Shown: positions 4,600-52,549, counted from the first letter of the stretch. The stretch: DNA of 64,000 bases from Candidatus Dormiibacter inghamiae (GCA_016464725.1 JAEKNO010000030.1:41803-105802); one strand, 5' to 3'. Notes: generated by a model from the sequence alone, not told the origin. Program-made: numbers and translations.

Positions 4600-6248
4600 A
4601 TCACAGCCTTCTCGGTGTAGAGGCCGAAGACGTCAACCATGGCGCCCATGATCTCACCCTCCGTGCAGTAGGCGCGTACGGCGTCGAGGATGTAGGGCAT
4701 CAGGTTCTCCCTCGGCGAGGCGGCTGCCTTCCGCAGCTGCGTTACCGCCCTGGCGGCCTGCGCCTGGTCTCGTCGGCGGCGGACTTCGCGGACACGCTCC
4801 ACCTGTTCCTGTTCCAGCCGGCGGGGGATGCGGAGGATCTCGATCTCGTCCTCCTCGTTGCCGGCCGTGAACTCATTCACGCCCACTATGAGGCGCTGGC
4901 GCGTTTCCAGCTCCTGCTGATGGCGGAAAGCGGCGTCGGCGATCTCCTTCTGCATGAAGCCGGCCTCAATGGCCGGGATGACGCCGCCGTAGGCGTCGAT
5001 CCGCTCGAAGTACGCCTCCGCCTCCGCCTCCATCCGGTCGGTGAGCGCCTCGACGAAGTAGGAGCCGCCAAGCGGGTCGACAGTGTTGGCGACGCCGCTC
5101 TCGAAAGCGAGCATCTGCTGCGTGCGAAGCGCTATCCGTGCGGACTTGTCGGTGGGCAGACCCAGAACCTCATCCATGGCGTTCGTGTGCAGCGACTGGG
5201 TGCCCCCGAGCACCGCCGCGAGCGCTTCGGTGGCCGTCCGGGCGATGTTCAGCTCAGGTTGCTGGGCAGTGAGTGAAACGCCTGCCGTCTGGGTGTGAAA
5301 GCGCAGCTTCAAGGAGCGTTCGTCCTGGGCGCCGTAGCGGTCACGCAAGTGACGTGCCCAGATGCGACGGGCGGCGCGGAACTTCGCTATCTCCTCGAAG
5401 AAGTCAATGTGCGCGTCAAAGAAGTACGCCAGCCGCGGCGCGAAGTCATCGATCTTGAGGCCTCGTTCGAGGCAGGCGTCGACGTAGGCGAAGCCGTCAG
5501 CCAGCGTGAACGCGAGCTCCTGAGCGGCTGTCGAGCCCGCTTCCCGGATGTGGTAACCGGATATGGAGACTGTGTTCCAGCGCGGCACCTCCTTGGCGCA
5601 GTACTCGATCGAATCGACCACCAGTCGCATCGAGGGCTGCGGCGGGAAGATGAACTCCTTCTGAGCGATGAACTCCTTCAGGATGTCGTTTTGGAGCGTG
5701 CCGTTCAGCTGCTTCATCGACGCGCCCTGCTTCTCGGCCACTGCCAGGTACATACAGAGCAGAACAGCGGCAGGTGAATTGATGGTCATCGAGGTGGAGA
5801 CCTGGGCCAGCGGTATCCCCCGGAACAGCGTCTCCATGTCGTCCAGGGAGTCGATCGCGACCCCGCAGTGACCAAGCTCGCCCCGGCTGGTGGGAGCGTC
5901 AGAGTCCTGGCCCATCAGGGTTGGCATGTCAAACGCCACCGAGAGCCCTGTCTGCCCGTTCTCCAGCAGGTACTTGTACCGCCGGTTGGTTTCAGCGGCG
6001 GTAGCGAAGCCCGCGAACTGGCGCATCGTCCAGAGCCTGCCGCGATAGCCGGCGGCGTGAATGCCCCGCGTATAGGGAAACTCTCCGGGCAGCTCTTCCG
6101 GCCCCTCACTCAGCGAAGCTGAGGTGTAGAGAGGCTCGATATCCGCTCCCGAGACTGTGGTGCTGCTCACGCCATCACTACGCTTGGGCGCGGTCTCGAA
6201 CTGCCGCTGCCACTGAGCGAAAGTCTCCTCGGCGTAGCGAACTTTCAC
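4596..6248 (-). CDS. acyl-CoA mutase large (substrate-binding) subunit with isobutyryl-CoA-mutase-like signature
   Basis: [56 protein letters not shown]. The TIM-barrel domain is present without a fused B12 domain. Confidence 0.85.
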
Positions 6249-6309
6249 GCTTCGGACTGTACCAATCGGCCTAGGCGCGCTTCGCCAGAAGCTTGGGCTC
6301 AGCCCTGAT

Positions 6310-7269
6310 TCAGGTTCTGGCTGCCTCGGGCACGAGGCGACCGCCTGCCCGGGTCAGGATCTCCTCGGCGGCGGCGTAGGGGATGCGGTCGCGACGCAGG
6401 CGGCCGGCGACCGCCTCATCGTGGTCCAAGAGGCGCCGGGCCTGAGCCCGAGCCCATTCCGCGACCAGATCGGCGGCTTCGTCCTTCAACCTCGCTTCAG
6501 CCCGCTTGGCGGCCTCGCCGGTCGCCTCCAAGTGGGCGCGATGGCGCTCCACGGCCGCCAACACCTCGACCACTCCCTCGCCTTTGATGGCGCTGGCACC
6601 GACGATCGGCGCGCGCCAGCTGAGCTTGGGCCCCATGTTGAGCATCGAACGAATTTCTTGCATCGTCTTCTGGGCGCCCGGCAGGTCTGCCTTGTTGACC
6701 ACAAAGACGTCGGCTATCTCCATGATGCCTGCCTTGAGCATCTGCACGCCGTCGCCCAAGCCCGGAGTCAATACGACCAGCGTGGTGTCAGCGATGGCGG
6801 CCACCTCCAACTCCGACTGGCCGACGCCCACGGTTTCCAGGATGACCTCGTCAAAGCCGAAGGCGCCCAGCAGGCGGACAGCCTCGCGGGAGGCCACCGA
6901 GAGACCGCCCAAGTGCCCGCGGGCGCCCATGGAGCGGATGTAGACGCCTGGGTCGAGCGCGTGCCTCTGCATGCGGATGCGATCGCCGAGGATGGCGCCC
7001 CCCGAATACGGCGAGTTGGGGTCTACTGCCAGAACTGCTACCCGCAGCTTGCTCTCGCGGAGATTGCCGACCAGCGCATCGACGAGCGTGGACTTCCCAG
7101 TTCCGGGGGCGCCGGTGAAACCGAGCACGCGGGGCCGCCGCGCACCGTTCGCCAGCGCTTCCAGCAGGTGCCTGACCGAAGGGTCCCGCTGCTCGACCAG
7201 CGAGATGGCGCGGGCCAGGCCGCGGATGTTGCCGGCCTTGAACTCGGCCAGCAGGTTACGTTCCGGCAT
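6310..7269 (-). CDS. meaB: mutase-associated G3E GTPase MeaB/ArgK
   Basis: P-loop [14 protein letters not shown] plus VVNKADL. Lies directly upstream of the mutase genes on the same strand. Confidence 0.85.
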
Positions 7270-7343
7270 GCCGTTCCATCATGGAGCAAGACATCCGGCT
7301 CCTATGCAGGAGGCAGCCGCAAAAAAGGATGATCTGGCGGAGA

Positions 7344-7361
7344 AGACGCCTTCCGGCGTCT
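7344..7361 (-). terminator. hairpin (7-bp stem, GGAA loop on the minus strand) downstream of the LCP gene, possible terminator
   Basis: AGACGCC-TTCC-GGCGTCT. On the minus strand a T6 run follows, but only about 17 nt later, so it is not a canonical intrinsic terminator. Confidence 0.3.
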
Positions 7362-7376
7362 CGGCGCTCGCTGCTA

Positions 7377-7553
7377 GAGGTGCGGCCGGGAACCCGGACG
7401 AGAGATTGGGTGGCCAAGTGGGTCAAATCCAAGGAGCCGACGAGCACCGCAGTGAGCGTATTGCGAATACGCCCAGCGAGGAGCGCAGGAGGCGGCGCCG
7501 GAGATGGCCCGCATGGGCGCCGAAGTTCCAGACGGGCTTTTCGGCCGCACCTC
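7377..7553. repeat. terminal-inverted-repeat element, copy 1 (177 nt), MITE-like or structured RNA
   Basis: Begins GAGGTGCGGCCG and ends CGGCCGCACCTC, a perfect 12-bp inverted repeat. Flanked by TA on both sides (7375-7376 and 7554-7555). Two further copies are in the window. Confidence 0.8.
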
Positions 7554-46277: not shown

Positions 46278-46928
46278 GTGCGCCGCCTCTTTCTGATCCT
46301 TGCGCCCCTGCTCGTGCTGGCCGCAGCCACGCCCGGCCAACGTCCCGCGGAGCGGCAGCCGCTGCCGGCGCCCAGCCCTGCCGCTGACGTAGACCACGGT
46401 GATGACATTCCAGAGTGGCTGCCCTATCTGGCAGCGCCGGCAAGCGGCCCTCGCCCCACCTTCAACTGGCCTCTGCGCGGATCCGTCTCGCAACCCTTTG
46501 GCTGCACTGGATTGGCTGCCGAGCGGGGCACGGCTGATTGCCCCGCCGGCTTTCACCAGGGCATTGATTTGGCGCAGCCTCCGGGCACGCCCATCGGGGC
46601 CGCAGCCGACGGTATCGCCTACGCCTTCCCCAACCGCGGCCGCTACGGCATCCACATCATCGTCCAGCATTCGAACGGCTATGCCACCGCCTACGGCCAC
46701 CTATCGCAGGCGACAGTCGGCTGGGGGGCGTTGGTCCGGGCGGGCCAGCAGATCGGGCTGGTCGGCACCACCGGCAACTCAACAGGTCCCCACCTCCACT
46801 TCGAGATCCGCTTCGCGGGCAGAGCGTTGGATCCGGCGCCCTACCTCGCCGCGCCCAAGTCCGACCCGGCGGTCCTACCCGCCGGCTGGCCAGGCGCCCC
46901 GGCGGACGACGGGCGCGGAATCCGCTGA
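46278..46928 (+). CDS. secreted M23 family metallopeptidase
   Basis: Signal peptide, then HQGIDL and GNSTGPHLHFEIR. Confidence 0.85.
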   Translation: MRRLFLILAPLLVLAAATPGQRPAERQPLPAPSPAADVDHGDDIPEWLPYLAAPASGPRPTFNWPLRGSVSQPFGCTGLAAERGTADCPAGFHQGIDLAQPPGTPIGAAADGIAYAFPNRGRYGIHIIVQHSNGYATAYGHLSQATVGWGALVRAGQQIGLVGTTGNSTGPHLHFEIRFAGRALDPAPYLAAPKSDPAVLPAGWPGAPADDGRGIR

Positions 46929-46950
46929 CCGCGCCGTTCCGCCGCTCCGG

Positions 46951-48225
46951 TCAGGCCTGGACGTCGCTTTCAGCGGGTTTCGGCGGCTGATACCTGCGCG
47001 CCTGTTCCGGCCGGCCGCGCCAGCGCCATTCCTCGGGCAGCATTGCCTCGAGCAGGTCGTCGTAGCTGACCACTCCCAGGATGCCGCCCCGCTCATCGAC
47101 AACCGGCAGCGAAGACAGGTTGTAGTCGGCCATCTGGACAGCCACCGAAGGCAGGTCGGCGTCGGCATAGACGGCAATGGGGTCGGAGGGAGAGAGATCG
47201 AGAAGAGTCGCTGACACTTCAGCGCAGAGCAGCTCCGCAAGACCGATAGCTCCTGACAATCGGCCGTCGACCAGGGTGTAGAGCGTGGTCAAGGTGGCGG
47301 GCACCTCCTCCAACCCACGAAGCCGCCGGATCGTTTGCTCCACTGTCAGAGCTGAGGGTAGAGCTATGAATTCGTTGCTCATGAGACCGCCAGCGGTCTC
47401 CGGGTTGTAGCCGAGCAGCTTGCGAACCTTGGCCTGCTGCTCAGGAGGCAGCAGCTCGAGCACGGGTCGGCGCTGCTCCTGGTCCAGCTCCATCAGCATG
47501 TCGGTCGCGGCGTCGGGATCCATGTTGGCGAGGATGGTTGCCACCTCCTCCCGGCTCCGGCCCTTGATGAACTCCAGCTGATGCTCTTCGTCCAGCTCCT
47601 CGAAAACGTCAGCTTCGAGTTCGTGGTCGTGCTGGACCGCGTCAAGAATCTCCTCGCCCTCATCATGCGAGGCCTCTTCCACGATGTCAGCGATATCGGC
47701 CGGCCTGAGTTTGGCCAAGCGGGAGGAGGGGCCCACCTGAGCCGACGGCACGTGACTCACCAGCGGCTCCACGCGCCTCCAGTCGATCTCACTCTGCTGG
47801 ACCCTGCCCAGGCCGAACGCGGCCAGGAGTCGGGAGGGAGGTGAGGGCACTATGCCGACCACCCGCCAGGAGCCCTGCTCACCTTCCAGCACGAGGTCCC
47901 TGACCCTCACCAGGCGGGCCGCATCGACATCGATGACTGAGTGACCCTGGACATCGCCCTCCAGCAGGACTTCCCCCGGGCGCCGTTCGAAAGGACGGCT
48001 GTCGACGCTCTCGGTGCGCAGCCTGCCGCCGTTGGCCGAGAGCTCGCTCAGATCGCGGGCGGAAACGAAGACGTCCTTGCCGTCCCGGTGGACGAGCACG
48101 CCTGTAACAGTGGGCAGGCCGCCATCGACCAGCTTCACCACACCGTCGACAATCTTGCCTACCTCGTTGCCGGACGCGGTCAGCAATGGCTGATCGTTCA
48201 GCTTCGAGAAGTGCAGCCTGGCCAA
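46951..48225 (-). CDS. soluble PRC-barrel + MgtE N-domain + CBS-pair protein (no MgtE membrane pore)
   Basis: LRPADIADIVEE...ILANMDPDAATDMLMEL...LLGYNPETAGGLMSNEF, then two CBS motifs (LPVVDERGGILGVVSYDDLLEAM). The protein ends 30 aa later with no hydrophobic segment. Confidence 0.8.
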   Translation of the reverse strand: MARLHFSKLNDQPLLTASGNEVGKIVDGVVKLVDGGLPTVTGVLVHRDGKDVFVSARDLSELSANGGRLRTESVDSRPFERRPGEVLLEGDVQGHSVIDVDAARLVRVRDLVLEGEQGSWRVVGIVPSPPSRLLAAFGLGRVQQSEIDWRRVEPLVSHVPSAQVGPSSRLAKLRPADIADIVEEASHDEGEEILDAVQHDHELEADVFEELDEEHQLEFIKGRSREEVATILANMDPDAATDMLMELDQEQRRPVLELLPPEQQAKVRKLLGYNPETAGGLMSNEFIALPSALTVEQTIRRLRGLEEVPATLTTLYTLVDGRLSGAIGLAELLCAEVSATLLDLSPSDPIAVYADADLPSVAVQMADYNLSSLPVVDERGGILGVVSYDDLLEAMLPEEWRWRGRPEQARRYQPPKPAESDVQA

Positions 48226-48243
48226 AGTGATGTACCTCCTAGC

Positions 48244-49911
48244 TTAACTATGAGCGCCAGCCGCCAACTGGATGCTTTTCACCACCAACAACAGTGCAGC
48301 GATAACCAGATACGCACGTAGAGCGGACATGCCGAACCGCCGCATGGGCGACCAGGTCGGCCGGTCCAGCAGCGCCAGGGGCGGCATAGTCCAGCCCTGC
48401 TGCCTTTGGCGCCGAGCTGCCGTCCGGTCAGTCCTGTGTCCTCTGCCCCTCACCGCCAGGACGGCGCCAAGGCTGAGCAATGCAGCCAGTACCAGTGCCG
48501 CCGTCACCGCGGCCAGGCTCTTCACGTCAACCCCGGGGAAAAGGGTGGTCACAGTCAGGATCCCAGACAGCGTCAGCAGCACTGTGATGATGACGGCTGC
48601 GATCGCGTTAAGCCAGGCCGGGTTCACCCAGGGCCCGAGCACCGCCCGGTCGTTGCAGAGGAGGAGTAGAAAAACGCTGGCGCTCGGCAGCAGCAGCCCT
48701 GCCAAGGCCTGCACGGCTGTGGTGATCAATCCGAGCGGCGCGTGGGGGATCAGGACGATGGCGGCGGCCCCTACGACAAGAGCCGCGAAGCTGGCGTAAA
48801 AGCCGCGCGCCTCCCGGAAATTCCAATGCAGCGAGTGGCGAACACCGAAGGTGTCCCCGGCAGCGTAGGAGGTGGCCAGGGCCACAGCCGACGCACCGAT
48901 CAGTGAGGCATTGAGGAGCACTATGGCAAACATTGCGCCGGCGGGTTTGCCCAAGGCCCGGCTGAGACTGTGCCCTGTCTGACCGGCATCACTGAAGTGG
49001 CCGAAGTCGGCTGAGCCCCCGAACGCTGCGGCGCAGGTCACGACGAGCGCTGCCGCACCGATGACCGTGATGACTGAGCCCAAAACGGTGTCAGCCCGCT
49101 CGTAGGAGATCCAGCGCGGTGTGATGCGCTTGTCGACAATGTTTGACTGCTGGAAGAAAAGCTGCCAGGGAGCCACTGTCGTGCCCACTATCGCGATTAC
49201 CAGCAGGATCGAGTCTCCGGTCAGTCCGCCCTGAATCCCCGGCACCACGAAGTCATGCACGACCGGCCCGATCTGCGGGTGGCTGATCACGACCAACGGG
49301 ATCACCAGGAAATTGGCAGCGACGAAGACGAAGAGCACACGCTCCCATCTGCGGAAGCTACCCGACGCAGTCACGACGATGAGCGCCAAGCCGGCGAGTG
49401 GAACCGATATGTATGGGCTCAGGCCGAAGTACTCCAGCGCCAGGCTGACGCCTATGAACTCGGTTACCAGCGTCAGAAAGTTGAGCAGAAAGAGGTCTCC
49501 GACTGCGAAAATCCCCCACCACTTGCCGAAGCGCTCAAAAATCATCTTGCCGTGGCCCATCCCAGTCACGGCGCCCAGGCGCACCACCATCTCCTGGTTC
49601 ACAATCAGGACCGGGATCAGCAGCAGCAGCTCCCACAAAAGGCTGGTGCCGTAGTTTTGGCCGGCCTGAGCGTAGGTGGCGACGCCGCCGGCGTCGTTGT
49701 CACCGACCATGACTATGATGCCGGGACCGATGACCGCCAGGAGGACGAGCAATCGCTGGCGCAGCGAGCGCGGCGGCCCCGAACCGAGCCTGATCGTTCC
49801 CAGCGCACCCGTGATGTCGCCGACGTGCGCCGGATCCAGGACGGCCCGCGAGGTACTGACTGGATCAATGCCCTCTCGGGGCTCGACCGAAGATCCGCGC
49901 TGGTTGCTCAT
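48244..49911 (-). CDS. NRAMP-fold transporter with NRMT-type (Mg2+) metal-site substitutions
   Basis: IGPGIIVMVGDNDAGGVATYAQAGQNYG (DPGN becomes DAGG) and IVGTTVAPWQLFFQQS (A..MPHN becomes T..APWQ). Strong SD AAGGAGGTG lies 6 nt before the ATG. Confidence 0.85.
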   Translation of the reverse strand: MSNQRGSSVEPREGIDPVSTSRAVLDPAHVGDITGALGTIRLGSGPPRSLRQRLLVLLAVIGPGIIVMVGDNDAGGVATYAQAGQNYGTSLLWELLLLIPVLIVNQEMVVRLGAVTGMGHGKMIFERFGKWWGIFAVGDLFLLNFLTLVTEFIGVSLALEYFGLSPYISVPLAGLALIVVTASGSFRRWERVLFVFVAANFLVIPLVVISHPQIGPVVHDFVVPGIQGGLTGDSILLVIAIVGTTVAPWQLFFQQSNIVDKRITPRWISYERADTVLGSVITVIGAAALVVTCAAAFGGSADFGHFSDAGQTGHSLSRALGKPAGAMFAIVLLNASLIGASAVALATSYAAGDTFGVRHSLHWNFREARGFYASFAALVVGAAAIVLIPHAPLGLITTAVQALAGLLLPSASVFLLLLCNDRAVLGPWVNPAWLNAIAAVIITVLLTLSGILTVTTLFPGVDVKSLAAVTAALVLAALLSLGAVLAVRGRGHRTDRTAARRQRQQGWTMPPLALLDRPTWSPMRRFGMSALRAYLVIAALLLVVKSIQLAAGAHS

Positions 49912-49970
49912 CTAACACCTCCTTTTGGTTGAGTGCGTTTCCTCTGTCCCGCACTCCGACAGGAGCTGAG

Positions 49971-50039
49971 CTAGCTGGTGCGAGCGATTCCCAGACGGGG
50001 CGCAGGGACGTCTTTCAAGTTCCGTTGGTCGGGACTCAT
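49971..50039 (-). CDS. candidate 22-codon leader uORF in the riboswitch expression platform
   Basis: AAAGGAGG-cgt-ATG, then MSPDQRNLKDVPAPRLGIARTS and a stop. The SD spacing is short (3 nt) and no homology is claimed. Confidence 0.25.
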   Translation of the reverse strand: MSPDQRNLKDVPAPRLGIARTS

Positions 50040-50131
50040 ACGCCTCCTTTCAACGCCCCTCATCGCTGGACCTCCGAGCGGGATGGCGCCTTGGGCAGGC
50101 TCAGGGCGGCGAGGCCGTCGTGTGCACCCCA

Positions 50132-50273
50132 CTCGTTTAGCTTTGGCGCCGCACGGCTTAGACTTTCGTCAGCCCGCTGACCCCTTAGCCGGGGGCACCT
50201 GTCCTGATCCGGCGCGCCTCCCGACGTTTTGGATCAGTGGCCTCTTTCCCGTGTGGTTGCCTCGCCTAACGAG
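50132..50273 (-). promoter_or_regulatory. M-box (ykoK leader) Mg2+ riboswitch aptamer
   Basis: The conserved blocks appear in the correct order on the minus strand: P1 CUCGUU/AACGAG; GUUAGGCGAGGC; helix CUGAUCC/GGAUCAG around AAAACGUC..GGCGC; CUAAGG; CAAAGCUAAACGAG. It lies about 220 nt upstream of the transporter ATG. Confidence 0.85.
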
Positions 50274-50302
50274 GCGCAGCAAACTGCTGAACCAGGATAT
50301 CA

Positions 50303-50329
50303 CCTTCCGCCCGGGATCCCGGCGGAAGG
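50303..50329 (-). terminator. strong GC hairpin 9 nt after the MBL-fold gene stop, terminator-like (no U-tract)
   Basis: CCTTCCGCC.GG-GATC-CC.GGCGGAAGG: a 9-bp stem plus 2 further bp. It separates the upstream gene from the M-box leader. Confidence 0.4.
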
Positions 50330-50338
50330 CCGGTCGCC

Positions 50339-51781: not shown

Positions 51782-52549
51782 TCAGGCGGCCGGCAGGTAG
51801 ATGCTCGCCAGGCCGCCCTCCTCGGGATCGAACCAGCCGCCCAGCCGCGTCTCCACGAGGAGGCGGATCAAAGGCTCACCCAGCTCGGGGACAGGTAAAG
51901 GCGCCCGCTCGCCGGCCGGTTCCAGGCGCAGTCGCCACCAGTCTCCTGAGGCCGTAGCGCTGAAGCAGGAGCCGGCGCCGCCAAGCCAGTCATACGTGCG
52001 GCTCAGCGCCTGCAGCAGCGATGGCTCGGAGGCAGTGACACGCGCCTGGGTGGGCACGCTGCGCTGCGCCCCCGGCGCCGCCAAGTTGAGGACGGCGCCC
52101 AGAACCACCGCGCGCTGCTCATCGCTCGGTTCGACCGCCAGCAGCTCCAGACCCTCAGCCCGCCGGCCGACCTCGAGGGCCAGGTCATGAATGTCCTCGA
52201 CGGAAACCGGGCGGCCGTAGGCCGACTGCCGGGTCAGCTCGCGCAGCGCAAGTAGCGAGGAACGCAGCTTGTGGCCGAGACGTTCGATGAGCCAGGTGCG
52301 GCCTTCGTCCGCCAGCTGTTGCGCCAGGAGCTCCGCCTGGCGGGCGGCTGCGCGGCCGTGCTGCGGGTCACGGGCCCAGCCGCAGAGACGGCCGCCGATG
52401 CGCAACTCGGTCCAAGGCCCGCCGGGCGGCGGTTGGTTAGCGGGTCCGTGCCGGCGGCCGCCAGGTACTTCCTGTAGCACTCCGCCGATGCGAACCCACA
52501 TCGGCGTGGAGTCGTCCCCCGGGCCGGTCAATCTGGCAGCCTCCGTCAT
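51782..52549 (-). CDS. cytoplasmic histidine-kinase-like protein with a degenerate ATP-binding domain
   Basis: H-box-like ERLGHKLRSSLLALRELTRQ. The C-terminal region aligns loosely to HATPase_c, but the N-box Asn and the G1/G2 glycine motifs are absent. Confidence 0.45.
   Translation of the reverse strand: MTEAARLTGPGDDSTPMWVRIGGVLQEVPGGRRHGPANQPPPGGPWTELRIGGRLCGWARDPQHGRAAARQAELLAQQLADEGRTWLIERLGHKLRSSLLALRELTRQSAYGRPVSVEDIHDLALEVGRRAEGLELLAVEPSDEQRAVVLGAVLNLAAPGAQRSVPTQARVTASEPSLLQALSRTYDWLGGAGSCFSATASGDWWRLRLEPAGERAPLPVPELGEPLIRLLVETRLGGWFDPEEGGLASIYLPAA

Follow-up and report, generated by a model that had tools for sequence, protein, structure and literature searches.

An M-box-preceded operon in Dormibacterota that pairs an NRMT-type transporter with a soluble MgtE sensing-domain protein

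We analysed a 64,000-nucleotide stretch of DNA from Candidatus Dormiibacter inghamiae (the window), in which a sequence-only reading had placed a Mg2+ riboswitch, an NRAMP-related transporter and a pore-less MgtE-like protein in a single operon. The three indeed lie on the same strand, and the gene for the MgtE-like protein (the partner) starts 18 nt past the TAA of the transporter gene, with a strong Shine-Dalgarno sequence (AGGAGG) inside the gap. The locus is thus a real two-gene operon, preceded by an M-box, in which an NRMT-type transporter is followed by a soluble protein made of the sensing domains of MgtE. The features referred to below are the following.

50294..50302, minus strand: possible extended -10 element TGaTATCCT, read from the sequence, ~14 nt upstream of the aptamer
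50121..50280, minus strand: M-box (ykoK-type) Mg2+ riboswitch aptamer, full-length RF00380 match
49912..50120, minus strand: leader or expression platform of 209 nt, between the aptamer and the NRMT start
50089..50075, minus strand: possible anti-P1 segment within the leader
50075..50071, minus strand: SD-like GGAGG within the leader
50063 or 50039 (AUG) to 49971 (stop), minus strand: upstream ORF (uORF) within the leader
48244..49911, minus strand: NRMT-type transporter gene, long form, 555 aa
48235..48240, minus strand: Shine-Dalgarno sequence AGGAGG of the partner, 9 nt before its start (TAA gct AGGAGG tacatcact TTG)
46951..48225, minus strand: soluble MgtE-like partner, 424 aa, TTG start, with Pfam, PDB and model matches
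47845..48225, minus strand: tandem PRC-barrel at the partner N-terminus, aa 1-127
47401..47709, minus strand: MgtE_N domain of the partner, aa 173-275
47038..47364, minus strand: CBS pair of the partner, aa 288-396
46912..46936, minus strand: GC-rich hairpin (GGCGCGG, 10-nt loop, CCGCGCC) without a U-tract, read from the sequence
46278..46928, plus strand: convergent M23 peptidase gene, filling the space downstream of the operon

The aptamer was matched by cmscan to RF00380 with 89.1 bits (E = 3.8e-18, model positions 1-169), about twice the gathering score of 44 bits, and no second Rfam match was found anywhere in the 64-kb window. The blocks from which the M-box had originally been recognised, CCUCGUUAGGCGAGGC, CUGAUCC..AAAACGUC..GGAUCAG, CUAAGG and CAAAGCUAAACGAG, are present in the window sequence, and the covariance-model search on the minus strand, which had been proposed as a check, bore the assignment out. 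All core blocks are conserved, and among 45 mappable consensus pairs 43 are canonical. The aptamer lies 209 nt 5′ of the transporter start on the same strand, that is, in the leader of a putative Mg2+-transport gene. The P4/P5 arm carries a deletion, being shorter than in the 95%-related locus L002 (135.8 bits), and this lowers the score in the window (89 bits) and in locus L001 (78 bits) below that of related loci (120–142 bits). The leader is conserved among three close relatives; in these, a conserved block, GTGATATCCTG, starts at TGaTATCCT, and the sequence further upstream diverges. This site is a possible extended -10 promoter element, at which a promoter scan made no call.

A terminator scan revealed no terminator-like site in the 209-nt leader, and the classical intrinsic terminator competing with P1 was not seen there; such a terminator is typical of the M-box family but does not define it (PMC12810186). 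The 3′ strand of P1 can pair with CGCCAUCCCGCUCGG (ΔG −21 kcal/mol), which is marginal relative to shuffled sequences (z −2.0). The same anti-P1 helix was not significant in a shuffle test of the leaders of other loci, and a clear switching helix was not found. The start context of the uORF is common to the window and locus L093. The pe20 Mbox of Mycobacterium tuberculosis, which D'Halluin et al. (2026, PMC12810186) showed to act through a translational platform and Rho-dependent termination, is similar in that it comes from a high-GC genome, has no intrinsic terminator and has small uORFs downstream of it. As the leader analysed here likewise has no intrinsic terminator, expression is probably shut off through leader/uORF translation and Rho-dependent termination; the platform, however, is demonstrated for pe20 and only deduced here, and the downstream genes are unrelated. 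It is quite improbable that the M-box is a decaying relic without regulation and the operon is expressed constitutively. The low score with its arm deletion, five sister lineages that lost or never had an M-box, and the missing switching helix would agree with decay, but a score still twice the threshold, the nearly complete set of intact pairs, the conserved core blocks and the preservation of the leader in close relatives argue against it.

The transporter matches Pfam Nramp PF01566 (E = 8.4e-79) over 355 of the 357 model positions, which corresponds to the NRAMP (LeuT-type) fold. Its best PDB match is EleNRMT from Eggerthella lenta (7QIA; E = 6e-58, 199.9 bits), with the next match at 3.1e-21 and MntH proteins at 1e-13 to 1e-15; in sequence it therefore stands nearer to a characterised NRMT than to the MntH/DMT proteins for Mn2+/Fe2+. 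The metal-site motifs are altered as had been described before, with D73-A-G-G76 in TM1 and T244-T-V-A247-P-W249-Q in TM6. Alignment to EleNRMT shows the NRMT signature (Asn to Gly in TM1, Ala to Thr and Met to Ala in TM6, and Gln in alpha-10), and every EleNRMT site residue checked is retained, as are all residues whose function has been tested in EleNRMT: D73, G76, E151, T244, A247 and Q401 correspond to D55, G58, E133, T224, A227 and Q379. Both proton-coupling His positions of alpha-6b are lost, being W249 and Q254 here and W and N in EleNRMT; the D, G, T, A, Q and the His-to-W change are identical in kind in the two proteins (PMC8806188). In contrast to EleNRMT, which has 438 aa and 11 helices, hydropathy predicts 11 core TM helices followed by TM12, an Arg-rich cytoplasmic loop and TM13. 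The TM12-13 loop carries the motif W-T-M-P-P-L-A-L-L-x-R-P-x-W-S, and the C-terminal extension is kept in 19 of 20 aligned homologues. The transporter clade also has a conserved cytoplasmic N-terminal motif, VLDxAHxGDIxGALGTI, which, like the TM12-loop-TM13 extension, is lacking in EleNRMT.

The partner contains MgtE_N (PF03448, 7.9e-22) and CBS (PF00571, 9e-14) domains; the match to PRC (PF05239) is marginal in this protein (23.1 bits against a cut-off of 21.2), and PF05239 is found in many homologues. A Pfam-A scan (E up to 0.01) gave no MgtE membrane domain. The match to the MgtE model TIGR00400 reaches 115.9 bits, where the cut-off is 232.75, and of the 450 model positions it spans no more than 26-251. 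Given these two results, the partner is not an MgtE channel. The best PDB sequence match is the MgtE cytosolic domain 2YVY (E = 1.7e-23), and Foldseek searches with the AF2 model (pLDDT 86) returned MgtE cytoplasmic domains (8GPV, 2YVY) at the top, with E of about 1e-17. The N-terminal part of the model (residues 1-130) was best matched by the tandem PRC-barrel of archaeal CdpB1/B2 (8QZO; E = 3e-6, TM about 0.5), followed by the PRC domains of RimM and RC-H. CdpB1/CdpB2 are, however, cell-division proteins with 12–15% sequence identity to the partner, and the resemblance is one of fold only. We found no published description of this PRC-barrel N-terminus in a partial search of the open-access literature. 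The pore-less MgtE_N and CBS protein with a PRC-barrel N-terminus that had been proposed from the sequence thus stands.

As in the cytoplasmic domain of Thermus thermophilus MgtE (2YVY/2ZY9), the partner has the N domain, the CBS pair, the start of the plug helix and five of the six Mg2+ ligands tested. The ligands in MgtE are E59, D91, D95, D226, D247 and D250 (PMC5882242), with which D206, D238, D242, N369, D390 and E393 align; all of these are acidic except N369. D206, D242 and D390 are invariant and D238 nearly so; in an alignment of 21 sequences N369, too, is nearly invariant. N369 takes a Mg5 ligand position and is the same change as D226N, which was combined with D250A in a double mutant to inactivate the Mg5 site in MgtE. 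These shared features suggest that Mg2+ clamps the N domain to the CBS domains in the partner in the same way as in MgtE, from which the partner differs by this Asn, by the absence of TM helices and by the extra N-terminal tandem PRC-barrel of ~130 aa.

Of T. thermophilus MgtE, the partner covers no more than residues ~27-254, and it ends in the plug helix, which is what one would expect of a truncated or frameshifted MgtE, or of one part of an MgtE split in two, with the pore part encoded elsewhere. Such an origin is hardly credible. At least 2,822 homologues of the same architecture occur in Dormibacterota and Actinomycetota, and a Nitrospirota query gave 3,752 matches; among the homologues listed, the pore domain is missing from 120 of 120, and the usual length is about 420 aa. 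The plug-helix remnant at the C-terminus carries a conserved motif, LPxEWRWRG, with W400-R401 invariant. Furthermore, minus-strand ORFs downstream of the partner in the 64-kb window had no Pfam match, the convergent M23 peptidase gene takes up the downstream space, and the partner travels with NRMT rather than with a pore gene. The pore-less form is not an artefact, and the missing membrane domain or assembly frameshift that had been considered was found neither nearby nor in the homologues listed. The GC-rich hairpin begins ~15 nt past the stop codon of the operon and overlaps the 3′ end of the peptidase gene. It possibly marks the operon end; a terminator scan made no call for it.

We surveyed the adjacency of the two genes in other genomes. 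Among 63 metagenomic NRMT loci that could be assessed, the partner lies on the same strand in 59 (~94%), spanning several phyla and three gene arrangements, and it goes with almost every long-form NRMT gene. In all nine independent Dormibacterota-type loci examined the transporter precedes the partner, with gaps of 13–94 nt where genes were called. An M-box immediately 5′ of NRMT was seen in independent lineages (the window, L005, L093, L010 and L040), but five of eight Dormibacterota-type lineages lack one, as do about 30 of the 33 loci in which the partner precedes NRMT; it is, thus, facultative at NRMT loci. Nor is the partner always co-regulated, because the riboswitch in L010 and L040 controls only the transporter. 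Locus L057 has an M-box-controlled NRMT paralogue without a partner gene. None of the four findings named beforehand as speaking against the sequence-only reading (no RF00380 match, an MntH-type transporter, a membrane domain nearby or lost to a frameshift, no recurrence of the pair) was made.

No characterised case of such a pair was known to the sequence-only reading. The combination had, however, been published by Shin et al. in 2014 (PMC4072509), who named NrmT and reported that most NrmT genes adjoin a gene for the MgtE cytoplasmic domain, often under an M-box ('mgtE-nramp operons'); it holds true that none has been functionally characterised. The partner is of the 'MgtE-like fragment' kind described there, being stand-alone, adjoining nrmT and retaining Mg2+ ligands. 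Since the pairing was already known, the locus is a new example and not a new system; what is new for the M-box/NrmT/MgtE-fragment arrangement is the host, from the Antarctic soil phylum Dormibacterota, and the inverted gene order. Ca_c0685 of Clostridium acetobutylicum and its relatives likewise bring together an M-box, a Mg2+ transporter related to NRAMP and a stand-alone, co-transcribed MgtE N+CBS gene (PMC4072509), though C. acetobutylicum has its partner in two pieces, each with a gene of its own, in contrast to the single 424-aa protein here. The published examples are mostly from Clostridia and Deltaproteobacteria and have intrinsic terminators, whereas the present leader is terminator-less; the present transporter is of the long form, with two extra helices (13 predicted), and the PRC-barrel N-terminus of the partner goes unmentioned in that paper.

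In Acidobacterium capsulatum, ACP_2976/ACP_2977 is likewise a pair of neighbouring genes for an MgtE-like protein and an NrmT-clade transporter, and it is the only pair for which co-expression was tested. Unlike the present locus it has no M-box, has the partner upstream, and encodes a transporter that behaved mainly as a Mn2+ importer: ACP_2977 rescued Mn2+ transport and Mg2+ transport only weakly (PMC4072509). The transporter analysed here could similarly be mainly a Mn2+ or broad divalent importer, its MgtE-like neighbour sensing Mn2+ or another ligand and the M-box only cross-regulating. ACP_2977 has the gene order of most long-form loci, most long-form NRMT loci are without an M-box, and EleNRMT carries both Mn2+ and Mg2+ (Ramanadane et al. 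2022, PMC8806188). Nevertheless, we regard this as improbable, as the window locus carries the M-box, which Shin et al. argue marks the Mg2+-specific NrmT subset (PMC4072509), and as T244 corresponds to EleNRMT T224, where the substitution T224A stops Mg2+ transport but spares that of Mn2+ (PMC8806188).

In the single published test, co-expression of the A. capsulatum partner with the transporter had no effect on transport, and Shin et al. offered 'metal chaperone activity' as an alternative role (PMC4072509). The partner might thus chaperone or buffer metal in the cytoplasm, or it might signal to another target through its PRC-barrels, being merely co-inherited with NRMT. PRC-barrels elsewhere make varied protein contacts (CdpB1/B2, RimM, the RC-H subunit), and the partners outside M-box control, together with the partner-less paralogue under it, fit this reading. 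We consider this rather unlikely, however, in view of the very tight linkage, of the retained remnant of the plug helix, with which MgtE contacts its pore, and of the conserved cytoplasmic motifs of the transporter clade.

Taken together, the locus is probably a Mg2+-uptake operon of Dormibacterota, switched by an M-box, whose partner acts post-translationally on the transporter, in the arrangement known from Shin et al. At low cytoplasmic Mg2+ the aptamer would be open and the operon expressed; at high Mg2+ it would compact and expression would cease. The transporter would bring in hydrated Mg2+, and probably Mn2+ as well, without proton coupling, like EleNRMT. The partner would form a dimer that, like MgtE, binds Mg2+ between the N and CBS domains, and would act as a detachable feedback sensor; gating of the transporter in trans is plausible. 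Docking may involve either the PRC-barrels or the plug remnant (EWRWR) of the partner, and the transporter may offer the VLDxAHxGDIxGALGTI motif and the TM12-13 loop as sites. More tentatively, and with some doubt on our part, the Mg2+-clamped dimer could be a gating subunit that docks on the long-form NRMT and closes the carrier at high Mg2+, with the M-box uORF/Rho layer on top.

What the MgtE-like neighbour of NRMT transporters does has been asked since 2014, and the structural work on EleNRMT, which considered no partner protein (PMC8806188), did not address it. The present locus is a clean and compact example, with its M-box, strong Shine-Dalgarno sequence and 18-nt gap. Experimental handles are given by the high linkage, the acidic ligands, tandem PRC-barrel and W400-R401 of the partner, and the cytoplasmic motifs of the transporter as a potential docking site. 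If the proposed mechanism is true, a channel-gating module of the MgtE type would have been recruited in trans to an unrelated LeuT-fold carrier, and the sensor domain of a channel would prove reusable as a separate regulatory subunit.

We scanned the 64-kb window with cmscan against Rfam 15, and its sole match was the M-box, RF00380:

50121..50280, minus strand: M-box aptamer (RF00380, cmscan against Rfam 15)

The match covered the full model at 89.1 bits (gathering score 44, E 3.8e-18), and 43 of 45 pairs were canonical when the Rfam consensus structure was mapped onto the window sequence. The M-box leader claimed in the sequence-only reading is thus borne out, and the blocks quoted there are found in the sequence. 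The aptamer scored 89 bits in the window, 78 bits in a 97%-related metagenomic locus (L001) and 136 bits in a 95%-related one (L002). The gap separating the window and L001 from L002 is due to the loss of 6-13 nt from the P4/P5 arm, which is shorter in the window aptamer (50121-50280, minus strand) than in that of L002 (L002:2930-3094). The aptamer is therefore variable even between close relatives. At 97% protein identity, the genomic locus nearest to that of the window comes from a Candidatus Dormiibacter spiritus MAG from Antarctic soil; the G+C content of the window is 67%. Upstream, a GC-rich hairpin with a 9-bp stem (50303-50333, minus strand; CCUUCCGCC, loop, GGCGGAAGG) directly follows the stop codon of the upstream metallo-beta-lactamase-fold gene and ends just ahead of the M-box transcript's putative -10 element; it probably insulates the two transcription units. 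Elsewhere, a 255-aa ORF (51782-52549, minus strand), flanked by GNAT acetyltransferase and response-regulator genes, had no Pfam match.

The first gene of the operon (48244..49911, 555 aa) matched Pfam Nramp at 8.4e-79. Its nearest solved relative in a PDB sequence search was EleNRMT, the Eggerthella lenta Mg2+ transporter (7QIA, E 6e-58), as against 1e-13 to 1e-15 for MntH/DMT structures; the sequence-only reading had likewise called it NRMT-type and not MntH-type. In the alignment to 7QIA, EleNRMT D55/G58/E133/T224/A227/Q379 correspond to window D73/G76/E151/T244/A247/Q401, a set that takes in the residues which Ramanadane et al. (PMC8806188) mutated or found at the ion site. In addition, the two canonical NRAMP proton-pathway histidines are replaced by W249 and Q254. 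The similarity to EleNRMT, the site residues and the histidine replacement together place the transporter, judged by its sequence, in the NRMT clade.

Hydropathy analysis showed that the transporter is of a long form, in which 11 core helices are followed by TM12 (469-487), an Arg-rich loop (488-525) and TM13 (526-544):

48244-48700, minus strand (NRMT residues 455-555): C-terminal extension, with TM12, Arg-rich loop carrying WTMPPLALLxRPxWS, and TM13

The loop is predicted to be cytoplasmic by the positive-inside rule, and its motif W-[TR]-M-P-P-L-A-L-L-x-R-P-x-W-S is kept in 19 of 20 aligned homologues. An N-terminal cytoplasmic motif, VLDxAHxGDIxGALGTI, is likewise conserved in the homologue alignment. 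EleNRMT and a short Nitrospirota NRMT (locus L004) lack both the extension and the N-terminal motif. The long form is very abundant, with at least 8,000 scored candidates, all past the E threshold, and nearly all of the 120 matches listed were 520-580 aa long. One long-form protein with 68% identity to that of the window (P0231) is annotated as coming from the archaeon Candidatus Nitrosotalea sp., which could reflect horizontal transfer or mis-binning.

The second gene of the operon (46951..48225, 424 aa, TTG start) encodes the soluble partner. The intercistronic sequence, TAA-gct-AGGAGG-tacatcact-TTG, has the expected 18 nt and includes a perfect Shine-Dalgarno (SD) sequence. Pfam detected MgtE_N (7.9e-22) and CBS (9e-14) in the partner, together with a marginal PRC-barrel match (23.1 bits versus a cut-off of 21.2), and did not find the MgtE membrane domain, in agreement with the pore-less domain order proposed from the sequence. 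Only positions 26-251 of the 450 in the NCBIfam mgtE model were covered, with a score under the cut-off. In the AlphaFold2 model (pLDDT 86), two small beta-barrels are followed by a helical N domain of the MgtE type and a CBS pair, and a short helix ends the chain. Its top Foldseek matches in the PDB were MgtE cytoplasmic domains (8GPV, 8GPS, 2YVY; E about 1e-17). Residues 1-171 modelled alone (pLDDT 86) matched best the archaeal tandem PRC-barrel CdpB1/CdpB2 (8QZO, E 3e-6); PRC domains from RimM and from the reaction-centre H subunit came next.

Such a protein could be a truncated or frameshifted MgtE. This was rejected because of its conserved architecture and C-terminus and the lack of downstream coding space. 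The same architecture occurs in at least 2,822 homologues from Dormibacterota, Solirubrobacterales, Gaiellales and Acidimicrobiia, and a Nitrospirota query gave 3,752 more matches. Among the 120 matches listed, partner homologues were mostly about 420 aa long, and the family shares a C-terminal motif, LPxEWRWRG. The downstream space is taken by a convergent M23 peptidase gene (46278..46928, 2.2e-30), and the minus-strand ORFs downstream of the partner had no Pfam matches. The absence of a pore is, thus, not an artefact.

We compared the partner with T. thermophilus MgtE, whose cytoplasmic Mg2+ sites were probed with the mutants E59A (Mg7), D91A/D247A (Mg4), D95A (Mg6) and D226N/D250A (Mg5) (Maruyama et al., PMC5882242). 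In a phmmer alignment to 2YVY these residues correspond, in the same order, to partner D206, D238/D390, D242 and N369/E393, so that acidic residues stand at 5 of the 6 ligand positions. The family alignments show no variation at D206, D242 and D390 and almost none at D238, and a conserved Asn takes the place of MgtE D226. The conserved ligands support the view that the partner has kept the N-CBS Mg2+ clamp, possibly with an altered Mg5 site.

We also considered whether the PRC-barrel N-domain co-varies with the C-terminal extension of the transporter. This was rejected, as in L004 the NRMT is short (410 aa) although its partner (420 aa) does contain the PRC-barrel. The L004 partner lacks the EWRWR motif, which is a lead only, because it comes from a single lineage.

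The two genes are recurrently adjacent. Among 80 loci (57-66% identity) taken from metagenome contigs scanned with an NRMT alignment, the partner lies upstream of NRMT on the same strand in 59 of the 63 that could be assessed; the other 4 had room but no partner, and a further 17 had too little upstream sequence to judge. The opposite order, NRMT then partner, holds for each of the nine independent loci of Dormibacterota type (the window together with L001/L002, L005, L088-L093 and the P0043 locus), with gaps of 13-94 nt where genes were called. At one further locus (P0058) partner and NRMT are convergent with overlapping 3' ends; this pair adjoins two genes with TrkA_N, a regulatory domain of K+ transport.

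The M-box is facultative. Of the Dormibacterota-type lineages, the window group, L005 and L093 have one and L088-L092 do not. Among 33 partner-then-NRMT loci, L010 (4563-4733) and L040 (1990-2160) have it between partner and transporter, where the riboswitch controls the transporter only and the partner is outside; in L072 it precedes the partner. Locus L057 (2346-7467) has two mutually convergent long-form NRMT paralogues. One comes after a partner gene but lacks an M-box. The other (5438-7069, minus strand) lacks a partner gene but is preceded by an M-box (7296-7467, 138 bits). Riboswitch control and partner linkage are divided between the paralogues. From these positions, the M-box, where present, is usually attached to the transporter gene. 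The inverted order in the window puts the partner under the same M-box control as the transporter.

How the aptamer might act was sought in the 209-nt leader. A terminator scan found no terminator-like hairpin with a U-tract in it, and the idea of an intrinsic terminator was rejected. Three M-box leaders contain upstream ORFs (uORFs):

window 49971-50063, minus strand: uORF
L093:1590-1650: uORF
L005:4096-4125: uORF

In the window, pairing is possible between the 3' strand of P1 and CGCCAUCCCGCUCGG (50089..50075; dG -21), a segment directly 5' of the GGAGG and AUG that open the 30-codon uORF (50063..49971); a second in-frame AUG at 50039 is preceded by its own AGGAGG. As a switching helix, this anti-P1 pairing looked attractive in the window but was set aside: there it beat dinucleotide shuffles only marginally (z -2.0, with 5% of shuffles equally good), and it was at chance level in the L005, L010, L040 and L093 leaders. 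Constrained folding with P1 free or blocked gave an ambiguous result for SD accessibility, without a clear change. On a conserved leader peptide the signs are mixed. The uORF start is common to the window and L093 (SD, AUG, MSP[DG]QR, two synonymous changes), and 6 of 7 uORF substitutions among close relatives are non-synonymous by our count from the alignment. The L005 uORF is unrelated, with 9 codons after the same UCGGAGGUCCA motif. These uORFs recall those 3' of mycobacterial Mboxes, of which the M. tuberculosis pe20 Mbox uses a translational platform plus Rho (PMC12810186). By analogy, we infer a non-terminator platform as the most likely mechanism of the window M-box.

The sequence-only reading knew of no characterised example of the pairing. 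The pairing itself was published in 2014 by Shin et al. (PMC4072509), who discovered NrmT via its M-box association, described an MgtE-cytoplasmic-domain gene next to most NrmT genes, often under an M-box, and speculated that this MgtE fragment serves cytoplasmic feedback regulation or has metal-chaperone activity. In that study, C. acetobutylicum transporters complemented without the fragment, and co-expression of the fragment had no effect with the A. capsulatum transporter, which acted as a Mn2+ importer. The EleNRMT structure paper of 2022 (PMC8806188) does not discuss the partner, and our literature search found no later paper on the role of the fragment and none mentioning PRC-barrel together with MgtE. 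The window locus, correctly read from its sequence, is a real instance of this published three-part arrangement. Specific to it are a new phylum, an inverted gene order, a long-form transporter with conserved cytoplasmic motifs, a partner that carries a tandem PRC-barrel and a terminator-less leader. Gating of the transporter in trans by the partner is a reasonable proposal.
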